64,000 bases of DNA from NCBI GenBank assembly GCA_964016885.1, contig OZ024747.1, forward strand, positions 12,772,001 through 12,836,000, written 5' to 3'. The notes under the pieces are model-generated. The model saw only the letters and a program-made list of their open reading frames with translations. It had not been told where the DNA came from and did no database searches. Below are positions 14,188 through 61,958 of this stretch, piece by piece. This stretch comes from Eledone cirrhosa (Eukaryota). The number at the start of each line of letters is the position of its first letter. Within the stretch, counting starts at the first letter, position 1. The translations under genes were made by a program, and so were the position numbers.

Positions 14188-14390
14188 ATAGGAAAATGTT
14201 TAACCCCGACGGCAGAGCTCAAGCCGTTTCGAGGGCTATTTCAGTCCAGAAATAGCCGTCGAAGCGGCTTGAGCTCTGCCGTCGGCGTTAAACATTTTCC
14301 TATTACCCACTCTACCACTCTACTACCCTAAGTATTGAGTACTCTGGTGCGTTATGGTCCATCTGGTTCCTTACCACACTTCCTTCGTTT
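14188..14390 (+). mobile_element. Fold-back Penelope-like pLTR remnant with hammerhead 3' half (family H1)
   Basis: Near-perfect hairpin 14188-14303 with arms containing GAAA-CGGC-loop-GCCG-TC-GGGG, then a tail with TATTGAGTAC. Flanked by (TA)n. Homologous to 25304 and 57792. Confidence 0.7.
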
Positions 14391-15186
14391 TATATATATA
14401 TATATATATATATATACTGCCTCCTGTCATTTTACTCACTAATTTTATATATATATATATATATATATATATATATATATATATATATATATATATATAT
14501 GTGTGTGTGTGTGTGTGTGTGTGTGTGTGTGTAAACAAACAAATATATGGGCACATAAAATGGTGCTGATTACTTTAATTTCAGAAAAAAACCTTTCCCT
14601 AGTTTCGCAATTCTCTCACACAAATCCATAAATAGTCTCAAGTCAATTTATTATAAACCAGTCAATAGTGTGATTGGGTCAGAAAACGGGACTATGAACC
14701 AGGGCCTTTCTTCTTTTGAAAAGAAAGTTATAGAGATTAGGGATTCAACAAGTTTTTCATATTTAAATCAAATCCCTTTTTAAAAATCTGTTTATAAAGA
14801 AAATAAGGACAGAAACAGAAAACCTTTACAATTTGTATCTTTCCCACCAGTTTTACATTTCTTTACATGTTGTAGACAATTCTTTCTTAATATAAGGACA
14901 TTGATTTTATTTATTGTAGTTGTATGACGTAAATAAATATTGATTGCAGCTGGTAGAATCCCAGCTGTTCAAGACTAAAGAAGTCTTTTCTGGCACCAAA
15001 GAAAAGACTCTCACGAAGAGAATTCAAATATATAGTTAAGTGGGTTCTAACATGTTTAACGTATTGAACTAAATAAACCAATGAACAAATGAAAATTTAA
15101 TCAATCAAAATTACTCCGGAATGAAAAGAAAAATCCTGAACGTTAATGATAATTCTTGTTAAAAGAGACAGTGGAGATAACTCTGA

Positions 15187-15490
15187 TATCTATCTATCTA
15201 TCTAGGGCAGGTAAAATTCCCGAGATCCATGGGCGAGTTCTCTCCAGCGGTCTCTGTCCCTCATTATCGCTGCCATGTCCTGTGTCTCCAAGAGACCAGT
15301 GTCTGTCCTTAGGGCATCAACATATGTTAACCTCGGTCTTCCTCTTTCAGTGTGTCCATGCAGTGGCTCCCACAGGAGCACTGAGTGCAGTTTCAACTCT
15401 GGATGTCAGTGAGCATGTCCAACTAACCTTAGTGTCTTCTGTGTCACTTTCGAGCTGACTTCTGGGAGGCTCCCGTACAGCTCTGATATC
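15187..15490 (-). mobile_element. RTE-like LINE 3' fragment
   Basis: LLWEPLHGHTERGRPRLTYVDALRTDTG..AIMRDRDRWR, followed by a short (TAGA)n tail. Confidence 0.75.
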
Positions 15491-15789
15491 CAAATTGATT
15501 AAACATTGAATGAATAGTCACCATGGAAGGTTGTTTGAGATTTTTCAGTCTGGGACTTTGTGATGAATGTAATAGTTTTAACTATTAAGGTATGAGAGAT
15601 ATAGTTTTTCATGAGGGAAATAGTGAGGGATATAGAGATAAGGAGTTTGTTATATCTTGTACAATCCGCCATCAGAAGTATCTCATTGAATGTGATGATT
15701 GGTTGTCTAGGGTTGCTGGTTAGAAAGGTGACATGGATTTACAAGATGAAACTTTAAATCTGTTGTGGTGAAACAAAGTTTCTTGGTGA

Positions 15790-15991
15790 ATTTACCTTTC
15801 ATCCTTACAGAGAGGGGAAAGTCGATTAAATCGACCTCAGAACGTTACTGGTGCTTTATTTTATCGACCCCCCCGTAAGGATGAAAAGCAAAGTTAACCC
15901 CGGCGGGATTTGAACTCAGACCGTAAAGGACCGTAACTCTATACTGCAAAGCATGGTGTCCGACTCTCTACCAATACTGCCAATCCACCGC
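15790..15991 (-). mobile_element. SINE family A (long subtype, 3' end disrupted)
   Basis: Consensus match. Confidence 0.85.
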
Positions 15992-17201
15992 CATCGCCAC
16001 CGCCATCGAGGATGTAACAATAAAAACACTGAACGTAATTCTATGGCGACAGAAAGAATTGTGTACTCCTCAAACTGTCAGACTGTACTTCGAAGCTGAA
16101 GGATAGAATAGTGTACCACCGTTTAGCTGAAGAATAATATATATAGGCGAAACACACGAGCACACTTGAGACACGTGATTGTGATATGATTACACAACAC
16201 TTGTTTGATAATACTCAATATGAGTTCAATACACGATAAAATTAAAAGAAACTTTCTCAACTGTTTGGTCACAAATACTCAATTTGTGATCTTTCTAACC
16301 CCCCCCCCCCCTTACCCCACAAAAAAAAAAGAAAAAAGAATTAAGAATTTTGAAGGATTTAGTAAAATTACTAAGTCTGTAATTGCTAAGCTGGTGTACC
16401 GACTTGGCGTTTACAACGATATCGTTAAATCTGGCTTAAGACACAGCTGGTTCCCCGCCGAAGTTGGTGAAGTTAACTGAGGGGTATAGTAAAAGGTCGG
16501 ATGACATCACACTCCCCATTACGGATGTGATCTGCAACGATATTTTCTCCCCGTGGTAATATGATGAAATCAACATAAGACGGAGGCTTCGCCGGTCGAC
16601 TGTCGCAAGCTGACAAAGTACCAGATGCTCTTTGATAGGTTTCTTGTCGAATATATATATGTACACACACACACACACACACACACACACACACACACAC
16701 ACACACACACACACACACATATATTTATATGATATATATATGTATTAAAATTCATATTTTCATATTTTTTAATCAGAAGCTGATTAGAGGTATGGGGCTT
16801 GCAGCTGGTGTATATATATATATATATATATATATATATATATATATATATATATATATATATATATATATATATATACATACCTATATATACATACATA
16901 TACATACATACATACATACACACATTCATACACACACACACACACACACACACATATATAAATATAATACTCCAGTTGTAAGACTCGTAGCTCAAATCAG
17001 CTTTTGATAAAAAACTATAAAAATATAAATTTTAATAAGTTTTAATAAGTTTAAAAAAAAATAATTCCAGAATTTCTGAACATAAAAATCCGAAGAACTT
17101 TAACGTAAAAGTCATAATTAAAATCTTAGAATGGAATTAAAAAAAAAGAAAAATCTATGCTAATACGAATAAGTGCCTTAGTTGTTGCCTAACTGCGGTA
17201 T

Positions 17202-17424
17202 TTAAACCTTTAGCATTTAAACCGGCCATATCCGGCCAGAATTCTTTCACCTCTTTTTGTTCAAACCGGCTGTAATCGGCCACACATACTGATGTTAAGG
17301 TATTGTTCTCAAAGTAAATAATATCAAAATCTCGTAGCTTCGATATTATGTGAGATAATTATGTGAGGTAAAACCACAAAAATTTAATAGTATATATAGA
17401 GTAATGTAAATGATAAAGGGTTAA
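17202..17424. mobile_element. piggyBac-type MITE
   Basis: TTAA-flanked inverted ends (A/C)CCTTTAGCATTTA..TAAATGATAAAGGG. Inverted sibling at 23467-23748. Confidence 0.65.
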
Positions 17425-59973: not shown

Positions 59974-60230
59974 TCAGATGCAACATTTTTGGAATGTTTT
60001 ACATAGTTTTACTGTTCCATTAATGCATTGTACTTGTAATTTCCTAACCAATTGTGTTCTTTCTGTTCCTGTGAAGCCCAGCTTCTCAAGATTTGTATTG
60101 AGGCAGTTACTAACATATTCAAGTGCCCCAATAATCACGGGTATAAATCTGAAGGTATAGTCAGGGTGGAGTATCTGCAGATTTTTCATTAGTTCTGCAT
60201 AAATATTCTCCTTTTCGTTAATCTTTAATA
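59974..60230 (-). mobile_element. R4/Dong-like non-LTR retrotransposon C-terminal fragment
   Basis: EKENIYAEL..LQILHP..FIPVIIGAL..LEKLGF..KLQVQCINGTVKLCK matches the RLE tail pattern K..KY..L / P(I/V)IIGALG / LQ...GT. Confidence 0.65.
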
Positions 60231-60644
60231 TTATGTATGTATGTGTAAATTTTATAGTTACAGACGGATATATATATATATATATACACGAAAACACACA
60301 TGGTGTATTACTATGGTTGGTTGATAAGAGGAATGAAGAGACTATTTCTTTAATGTCAGCAGATTGATTAATAATTAGCATCGAACTCCATAGTCTTTCT
60401 CTTACCACAGAATGCAAAGTAAATCAGAGTTTTGAAGGATAACATTCTTAAAATCTGCTCGGACACTTCAAGTGTAGTAGTGGTTGACATTCGATATTAA
60501 CTACTATTAAAACAATATCAAAGTGGGGGATTGGCAGAATTGATAGCCAGAGCAAATACCAAAAGAGTATTTATCCGACGTTCTATTTACATTCCGAGTT
60601 CAAATTCTTCCGTGGTCGATAAGATGAAATACCAGTTAAGCAAC

Positions 60645-60965
60645 CGTCTCCAACTGATCCGGCTGGATCCCCAAGGGAGACCAGCCAAGCTCATGGATGT
60701 TATCCAACCACCATACTCGACCTCTACCCCTGGGTCTCCTGCCGGTTGGTTTTGCCCGATATTTCCACAAAGATGTTTAGCGATTTATTTATCGATTACT
60801 GGAAATGATTATATATTTAATTTAATTATGTAAAATTGTTTAAAACTGTGATCATTTCAGGTCCAGCAATGCGCCCCTCTAAAGTCTGCGCCATAGGAGT
60901 ATTTTGTGAGGCTTTATGGCCAAGTTTAGACACTCACGGACAAATACGTAAACCAACTTTTGAAA
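60645..60965. repeat. Second copy of the composite repeat at 10405-10745
   Basis: Colinear similarity across the RTE-fragment/AT-rich junction. Confidence 0.85.
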
Positions 60966-61391
60966 TCGTATTTGATTGATAGTGGTGGTGGTGTTAATTT
61001 TAGTCTTGTATTTTTTCGAGGTCAACAAAATAAAGTACCAGCTAAGTACTGAGGTTAATTTAAGCGACTGGAATCTCTTTCAAAATATCTGGCCTTGTAG
61101 CTATGTCAGAAATCACTATCATTTAAAGATTTTGCAGGAGTGTCTCTTTTTAAAATTATTATTGTTCATTAGAATTTCCTTTAACAATGACTGCTTTAGG
61201 TACTTGTACAACATCTTATCTATATCTATCTATCTGGGGATTTCGATTGTTAAATTTGTTTGTTTTAATAATAGTTTTACACGATTGTATGTAAAATCCC
61301 CGGCATGTGTCTTTGTATTGTCCCCTTTTCTTGTGCGCCCTTGTGGCAAATAAAGAAATATATCTATCTATCCATCTATATATATATATAT

Positions 61392-61774
61392 TTATATCAA
61401 AGGTATATATTGAGTTAGAAACTCAAAATAGTCTCTAACAATTAAATAGCTCAAAGAAAGAGGTTTTTCTGAGCCGTGTAATATAATTGAATATAAAAGA
61501 GGGATAAACACAGATATAAACATACATGTGTTCAAATTGTAAGGGACCAAGTTCGCTAGGGTTGCGAAACAGCCTACCATAAGCTGTCTGGGTGTTCCGG
61601 CAGTTGCCCAATATAGGTTTGTATTCCTTTTCTTGATTTATTGTTTTAAATTGAGTCTGGCAAACCATATTGTTAATAGTTAGTATTCTGTTCACCCTAG
61701 CGAACTTGGTCCCTTACGATTTGAAGACATGTATGTTTATATTTGTGTTTACCTCTCTTTTATATTCAATTATA
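61392..61774 (+). mobile_element. Inverted-repeat Penelope-like remnant with hammerhead 3' half (family H6)
   Basis: Arms 61481-61562 and 61694-61774. GAAA-CAGC-ctaccataa-GCTG-TC at 61566-61588. Tail homologous to about 42400-42490. Confidence 0.65.
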
Positions 61775-61789
61775 TATATATTTATATAA

Positions 61790-61958
61790 ATTTGTTTTGC
61801 AAGGTTTTTGATTTGATATGAAATCGTGTGTTGAAACAAATATTTTTATATTTGGGGAGGGTCATATTGTTATAATATTGCCTGAAATATATAATAAAAC
61901 ACATTTTAATATATTTCTGGCAATATTATAATATGATCCTCTCCAAATATAACAATAT
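61790..61958. mobile_element. Fold-back remnant (family H4)
   Basis: Hairpin about 61851-61957 plus tail homologous to 24722-24805. Confidence 0.6.

Follow-up and report, generated by a model that had tools for sequence, protein, structure and literature searches.

The 64,000-nt stretch of the Eledone cirrhosa genome from position 12,772,001 to 12,836,000 of contig OZ024747.1 (G000:C7:12772001-12836000, here called the window) carries twelve short elements, each named below by its starting position, and raises the question of what they are and how they were copied. The initial annotation described them as abundant, non-autonomous ribozyme retroelements of 150-450 bp targeted to TA repeats. 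It is highly probable that most of them are 5′-truncated 3′ ends of Penelope-like elements (PLEs) joined head to head in TA repeats, and that 25517 and 61392, the only two that derive from open reading frame (ORF)-less tandem hammerhead units, are likely copied by the same enzymes. The window is microsatellite-rich, with a G+C content of 34% and interspersed repeats that appear octopus-like, and it belongs to an assembly of 3.0 Gb in 1796 contigs.

All twelve elements are present at the coordinates previously claimed for them and, where several families had been proposed, nine were recognised, A to H and a sister of E (Table 1). Folding supports a hairpin or inverted repeat with a one-sided tail in ten of the twelve (14188, 24393, 24824, 25304, 50097, 50348, 57074, 57792, 61392 and 61790). 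The exceptions are 25517, a lone 314-nt monomer without fold-back that corresponds to positions 8-321 of a 321-nt unit, and 26029, which is the inverted arm alone of a structure that spans 26029-27585 (1.56 kb) and has a second, previously overlooked hammerhead at 27398; eleven of the twelve are fold-backs or arms of one. In every family the outer boundaries are fixed at two points, the short end and, 45-90 nt beyond it, the tail end; the inner junctions vary. The tail or the greater length can be on either arm (24393, 61392 and L270; L labels denote copies elsewhere in the same genome).

The location of the elements beside (TA)n was borne out, with (TA)4 found no more than ∼25 nt away from 11 of the 12 and flanking 8 of them on both sides. 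Only 50097 was negative on both sides, and the right end of 57074 was placed ∼20 nt short in this test, TA following at 57236. The predicted enrichment was also found, as (TA)4 adjoins 26 of 36 tail ends compared with 7.9% of random and 4.7% of AT-rich random positions. In a sample of 40 stretches of 10 kb taken at round coordinates (400 kb), (TA)n was present at the tail ends of 10/10 A and 6/6 F copies. This sample contains 62 insertions, or 52 if E and E-sister were double-counted, giving a density of ∼130-155 ends per Mb, by which the window is an ordinary one, and a rough extrapolation from the 400 kb gives ∼0.4-0.5 million in the genome. First-look candidate counts, which are lower bounds with 40 candidates scored per family, were 3879 (A), 4449 (B), 3378 (C), 3685 (D), 4223 (E), 1010 (F), 1754 (G) and 3977 (H). 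Abundance and TA targeting therefore stand, but non-autonomy finds no support as a general statement because 7 of the 12 elements belong to families whose longer copies run into GIY-YIG or reverse transcriptase (RT) frames on the same strand.

As these frames lie upstream of the longer copies, the PLE connection made in the initial annotation is confirmed and the assignment is now direct rather than indirect. The window itself has no PLE RT or GIY-YIG ORF detectable by tblastn with Hydra and Neptune probes, as had been noted. Extension of the families reached coding partners for A, D, E, E-sister and F, and a probable one at one locus for B, but none for G, and none for C or H. Seven of the elements are hence from coding families, the two B elements are probably from a coding family, two are retrozyme-like, and the remaining one is the G element. 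Families A, D and F are of the Hydra type and E and E-sister of the Neptune type, as judged by protein motifs rather than an RT tree.

Copies of A without a fold-back retain the ribozyme's otherwise missing 5′ half, together with a long leader rich in pyrimidines, and in 17 of 29 loci chosen by this leader a GIY-YIG frame is upstream on the same strand. The window arm or tail was downstream of GIY-YIG in all 12 loci checked. For D, positions 26346-27600 of the window are 89.5% identical to the stretch that directly follows a degenerate Hydra-type GIY-YIG frame in L217, which includes DKT and RW and is flanked by an inverted pseudo-long terminal repeat (pLTR) and by a direct pLTR with tail; GIY-YIG is upstream on the same strand in 5 of 16 long D loci. 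The link was found in 4 of 48 loci holding F, and in L322 the GIY-YIG stop codon is ∼190 nt before the hammerhead. A Neptune-type GIY-YIG is upstream of E in 15 of 29 loci, continuing into RT in L243 and L238, and in L310 and L311 long copies of E-sister are preceded by an RT/GIY-YIG frame of the Neptune type, with the hammerhead located upstream of the part retained at 61790. The frames of L238, L243 and L311 contain a CX2-5CxxC linker before GIY-YIG. Linker and endonuclease motifs of the Hydra type align for A and D and partly for F, and only the C-terminal part aligns for B. In L423, the inversion junction marks the start of a GIY-YIG fragment, and 3.1 kb further along this arm B forms its end; a mariner-type fragment is found within the leader of this B copy (L423:2900-3760).

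A young family of coding PLEs is also present in the genome, with 41,135 first-look candidates, of which the 146 scored show 90-100% identity. It has many open frames >900 aa, the protein motifs RW, DKT, YxDD, CxCx5C, CxxC and CxH, and a canonical hammerhead in both pLTRs. The motifs RW, DKT, CxCx5C, CxxC and CxH define the Hydra clade (PMC8557442), and the intact frame of L132 includes DKT, RW(K), CxCx5C, CxxC and CxH and no CCHH. This first intact Hydra family (L125-L136) was rejected as parent of the window families, having its own hammerhead, and served as a probe. RT fragments beside L029, L057 and L076 were likewise rejected as partners, being separate insertions in the same TA tracts. 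Searches of Pfam matched family E to GIY-YIG (E-value 2e-4) and RVT_1 (E-value 6e-4), neither reaching the curated cut-off, and gave no informative match for Hydra-type frames; a PDB sequence search likewise failed to recognise the Hydra-type protein. Clusters of GIY-YIG and RVT_1 are among the Atlas neighbours at 0.96-0.98.

The claim that the elements carry complete or half hammerhead cores holds for eleven of them, three being complete type I motifs and the remainder halves or damaged, but 61790 has none. The absence of a core in 61790 had been recorded, as had the arm and tail common to 24393, and both are correct; the core is missing because this copy is truncated downstream of the hammerhead. 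A hammerhead half considered for 61790 was dropped, as it is antisense and probably due to chance. A strict descriptor for the complete type I hammerhead found two motifs in the window (26127 and 25653, both on the minus strand) and none in 30 shuffles, and a relaxed version permitting a mismatch at the base of stem II added 24951 (minus strand), with none in 20 shuffles. Where cores are halved or damaged, a complete motif is present elsewhere in the family, and long copies of A to H all have a predicted complete type I hammerhead. Cores are conserved, as proposed, in 32/34 copies of D, 39/43 of E, 24/33 of B (exact), 24/30 of C (canonical), 9/15 of H and 10/14 of F. The bare CUGANGA word is at chance level in the window (26 sites, 16-32 in shuffles), so the case depends on stems and family conservation, and none of the 16 remaining CUGANGA sites inspected in the window is a clear further element. 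No Rfam hammerhead match in the window reached the gathering score, and none was among the 150 listed of 310 weak matches, the weak matches being microRNA-like hairpins.

Inverted repeats, TA flanks and small size are features that the elements share with TA-specific miniature inverted-repeat transposable elements (MITEs), and MITEs or other DNA transposons containing hammerhead words by chance would also account for the CUGANGA frequency and the lack of an Rfam match. However, on the tail side the inverted repeat stops short of the end of the element, where the sequence is unpaired, so the elements do not resolve as MITEs: terminal inverted repeats at both ends were not found, and a target-site duplication is unreadable inside (TA)n. 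The relaxed descriptor gave 23 complete motifs in the 400-kb sample against 0-2 in 5 shuffles, the cores of D and E are conserved, stems that vary between subfamilies (stem I of B, stem II of A) still pair, and the RT/GIY-YIG links contradict this origin, which is highly improbable. Fold-back chimeras are a known artefact of long reads. Among the public contigs examined, which come from two runs of one sample and contain the families, none spans a fold-back centre or the region, as would be the case if the hairpins were assembly or library artefacts; yet with fixed family-specific ends, TA flanks, arms diverged by 5-14% and thousands of candidates per family, an artefact is hardly credible.

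In family A, the hammerhead has U3-A8 and C3-A8 cores and a long stem II loop. C3-A8 was found in at least 24 of 38 long copies and U3-A8 in several; these copies were chosen by similarity to one young locus and the counts describe that subfamily only. U3-A8 is a described variant (PMC4209133), and weak activity is predicted for C3-A8. This mismatched core is the one most often found in the young coding A subfamily (L333-L362). A scrambled-order (type-SGC) hammerhead was considered for A and rejected, as the motif is an ordinary type I with a long stem II, to which the type-SGC lead (PMC10085705) does not apply, and none was seen among the twelve elements, though no systematic search was made. 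In contigs of a related public sample, the end of 24888-24956 is linked to its own start by 9-16 additional bases, suggesting a tandem mini-unit of ∼80 nt, belonging to the 24824 subfamily and containing the whole hammerhead.

Families C and H are, on their sequence, ORF-less tandem units of the retrozyme type, with periods of 321 nt in C and 490-520 nt in H (a unit of ∼518 nt) and longest ATG frames of 55 aa and 48 aa, respectively. The sequence upstream of each is the previous unit. No PLE frame was found upstream in 29 C loci, and one was found in 27 H loci, in L200, which also holds an F copy. A partial unit directly precedes a full unit in 7 of 27 C loci. For H, two core patterns 518 nt apart were seen in L206 only; for C, no two consecutive units with complete hammerheads were found in 32 loci.

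A further feature that connects the families is a stem in the tail, formed by a four-pair outer helix, a bulge of one or two pyrimidines and a short inner helix, and common to A, B, D, F, G, H and the intact Hydra family. Its start is 5-9 nt beyond the short end in the intact Hydra family and in A, B, D and H, and at 16 nt in 14188, which has a local duplication. A descriptor composed after inspection of the tails it describes finds the stem in 7 of 10 such tails, missing the decayed window copies 50097, 50348 and 57074, in none of the three tails of E, E-sister and C, and in at most 0.6% of shuffles. Across copies it is found in 18/29 (A), 17/29 (B), 10/17 (D), 17/19 (F), 8/19 (G), 8/18 (H), 0/16 (E) and 0/24 (C). 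It gave 100 matches in the 400-kb sample, with TA downstream of 28 against a background of 14% but also upstream of 26, which is a weak test, and picked up PLE-like ends not used in writing it. Through this predicted stem, G and H are connected with Hydra enzymes. Simple alignments across families, whether of hammerheads or of tail stems, gave no information. A second stem after the tail end was seen by eye in two of three tandem H loci (L204 and L212), and further PLE-like ends with a hammerhead or the shared tail stem, outside the window families, are in L129, L134, L301, L303, L310 and L313.

The likely mechanism, and the simplest account of this anatomy, is twin priming. The PLE endonuclease would nick both strands of (TA)n, and each free end would prime reverse transcription of the PLE RNA, starting at either of two internal sites. 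Both complementary DNAs (cDNAs) would usually stop early, often inside the structured ribozyme region, and joining of their ends would leave a hairpin with a tail on one side. Since copies read intact through the cleavage site, the template was uncleaved RNA, and the hammerhead of short copies would be a passenger of the pLTR, which may be why many retain only half of it. In vitro, the protein of Poseidon, a PLE of Anolis, nicks and extends both strands of an AT-rich target, two internal RT start sites bound the tail, and ribozyme cleavage is unneeded (PMC11167929). That element is of another clade with another target motif, and inverted joining was not reconstituted in the parts of the study available to us.

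Where the two arms meet was surveyed in incidental tail-bearing copies that reach the GAAA box, a non-random set of loci from which those with <300 nt of upstream sequence were left out. The inverted arm begins within 80 nt of the GAAA box in 21/30 copies of A, 8/19 of B, 5/11 of F and 2/3 of G. Of the other A copies, one has its fold point at 81-200 nt, six beyond 200 nt, and two have no inverted arm, a bimodal distribution that suggests either stops within the ribozyme or re-amplification of hairpins. The latter would apply if the hairpins of A subfamily 1, B, F and G were self-standing non-autonomous masters that are transcribed and re-inserted as hairpin plus tail, a view near to that of the initial annotation. 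The hotspot near the GAAA box in A, B and F, the same exact palindrome at the centre of most of the 20 best F matches, and some private changes and one insertion common to both arms would fit such masters, as would the lack of a coding partner for G. This origin is nevertheless unlikely, given that the centres of A, B and G vary from copy to copy, that the same arms and tails occur on long coding copies, and that the top F matches were selected by a hairpin query. Moreover, identity between arms within a copy scarcely exceeds that between copies (0.88 and 0.86 for A, 0.90 and 0.86 for B, 0.955 and 0.948 for F, 0.86 and 0.84 for G).

A single cDNA that snaps back at its 3′ end and self-primes the second arm is a somewhat poorer explanation still. 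It would account for the near-perfect palindromic centres of F and of some B copies and for private changes found in both arms, of which there are 8 in A, 4 in F, 5 in G and 1 in B, with rough chance ceilings of 5.5, 0.6, 6.6 and 4.1, respectively. Against this, the second arm stops at the fixed short end, abutting (TA)n 45-90 nt before the tail end, either arm may be the longer or carry the tail, and many junctions are asymmetric, with spacers of up to 900 nt. Arm identities and shared private changes together do not settle the origin.

Several observations weigh against the derivation of the elements from PLE ends by twin priming. Both the private changes shared by two arms and the F palindrome, which fits a hairpin master or snap-back, are among them. 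The coding link of A is with subfamily 2, and subfamily 1 (25304 and 57792) is 82-86% alike, with a single copy (L325) reaching the 5′ core. For B, the link in L423 spans a microsatellite and a mariner insert, no second locus confirmed it, and in L426 an unrelated PLE with its own hammerhead and A-rich end is upstream of B. No coding partner of G was found in 49 loci with 1.5-kb flanks, and a search with sequence upstream of G gave short copies only. Family C lacks the shared tail stem and no helper was identified for it. A demonstration of twin priming in vivo was not found for any PLE in the literature available, and beyond PMC11167929 the article texts searched describe neither PLE twin priming nor the tail stem-loop.

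A more specific version of the PLE-end reading can be put forward tentatively, and we would give it somewhat less than even chances. Hydra-type PLEs would use twin priming at two start sites marked by the bulged stem, stalling of RT in the hammerhead would have generated hundreds of thousands of hairpins that split the ribozyme, and ORF-less units such as H would hijack the enzyme via the same stem. Ribozyme activity would be dispensable, because C3-A8 predominates in the young coding A subfamily.

Hammerhead-bearing PLE ends that are truncated and inverted, together with a small number of retrozyme-like units, already form a known class, and the families described here are additional members. 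Published PLE features include the inverted truncated copy, the one-sided tail, the minimal hammerhead and the (TA)n bias. PLEs of the Hydra clade (PMC8557442) resemble the families here in the C-terminal GIY-YIG, the DKT, RW and CxCx5C linker motifs, CxxC and CxH near conserved E and N, the pLTR hammerhead, insertion in (TA)n, the inverted 5′-truncated copy and the one-sided tail. They differ in that tails are 30-40 nt rather than 45-90 nt, and 3′ untranslated regions (UTRs) of up to 1.3-2 kb, tens of thousands of candidates and the U3-A8/C3-A8 cores and long stem II loop of family A are particular to the families here. Supplements of that study list Hydra families and may include relatives. 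E and E-sister, placed by motifs, are like the Neptune clade (PMC8557442) in the CX2-5CxxC linker, upstream RT, minimal hammerhead and tail. Hammerheads with a short or palindromic helix III, an extra base before helix II and the U3-A8 variant, and pairs of motifs on opposite strands 100-700 bp apart, ascribed to truncated PLEs as here, are in PMC4209133; ribozyme-internal fold points and half motifs, seen here, are not described in the available part of it.

Non-LTR retrozymes (PMC7229834; bioRxiv 10.64898/2026.07.22.740005) are similar to C and H in being ORF-less tandem units with a type I hammerhead in a PLE-rich genome, and PLEs have been proposed as their helpers or parents in the same sources. 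Family C (321 nt) is inside the retrozyme range of 150-450 bp and H (∼518 nt) above it. Unlike in retrozymes, most copies here consist of a monomer or a partial tandem, with inverted arms and tails. Active Penelope families have been reported in an octopus, with hammerheads unmentioned in the available part of the report (PMC13282606). The scientific value of the additional families is modest, and consists of direct genomic support for PLEs as retrozyme helpers and, with many families side by side, of testable predictions on how PLEs make inverted copies and tails. For annotation, ∼0.4-0.5 million ends resemble MITEs or microRNA hairpins and escape Rfam and Pfam.

Table 1. Elements of the window and their predicted features. 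Base coordinates of motifs, read from rulers and descriptor output, are approximate.
Element	Family	Positions	Strand	Features
14188	A (subfamily 2)	14189-14392	+	Hairpin 14189-14301 and tail; 3′ tip of Hydra-type PLE; 3′ hammerhead half at ∼14261-14287, damaged GAAA box
24393	E	24393-24723	-	Main arm; pLTR end of Neptune-type PLE; minimal hammerhead, core at 24605, one change shortens stem I; finishes at short end
24393	E	24722-24812	+	Inverted arm with ∼55-nt tail
24824	B	24824-25002	-	Tail arm; complete type I hammerhead, core at 24951; also short inverted arm, core at 24967 on +
25304	A (subfamily 1)	25304-25492	-	Hairpin 25383-25492; tail 25304-25382; 3′ hammerhead half
25517	C	25517-25830	-	Nearly full 321-nt ORF-less unit; complete hammerhead, core at 25653
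26029	D	26029-26346	-	Inverted arm; complete hammerhead, core at 26127; finishes at short end
26029	D	26346-27585	+	Main arm; 1.25 kb of PLE 3′ UTR/pLTR and tail; hammerhead core at 27398, damaged GAAA box
50097	B	50095-50275	-	Fold-back and tail; centre just 5′ of both cores, 50223 on - (damaged GAAA box) and 50229 on +
50348	G	50348-50540	-	Fold-back and tail; 3′ hammerhead half, complete motif in other copies
57074	F	57074-57235	+	Fold-back and tail; centre immediately before core at 57132; 3′ tip of Hydra-type PLE with short 3′ UTR
57792	A (subfamily 1)	57792-58010	+	Hairpin 57792-57934 and tail; 3′ hammerhead half
61392	H	61562-61772	+	Main arm; 3′ half of canonical hammerhead, from ∼518-nt ORF-less tandem unit
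61392	H	61392-61562	-	Inverted arm with ∼85-nt tail
61790	E-sister	61790-61958	-	Fold-back of last ∼110 nt, cut downstream of hammerhead

Two families are chimeric or nested within one TA tract in L272, L284, L214 and L077, comparable to the clusters at 24393-27585 and 61392-61958 in the window. Directly after the family D structure, 27690-27960 is a nested inverted repeat with a (TA)n centre and a partial duplicate of one arm, which gave microRNA-like Rfam matches. Minisatellites occupy 18-867, 3984-4827, 4907-5761, 7244-7653, 20606-21250 and 39122-39695, and an imperfect (AT)n array of 4.5 kb extends over 28709-33217. A G+C-rich repeat at 1700-2050 has 8 matches in the loci examined and by eye resembles the upstream flank of the C copy in L062. 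A 71-nt piece of a SINE (short interspersed element)-like repeat is present five times in tandem at 43579-43933, and the repeat recurs at ∼56880-56990 and ∼57400-57580.

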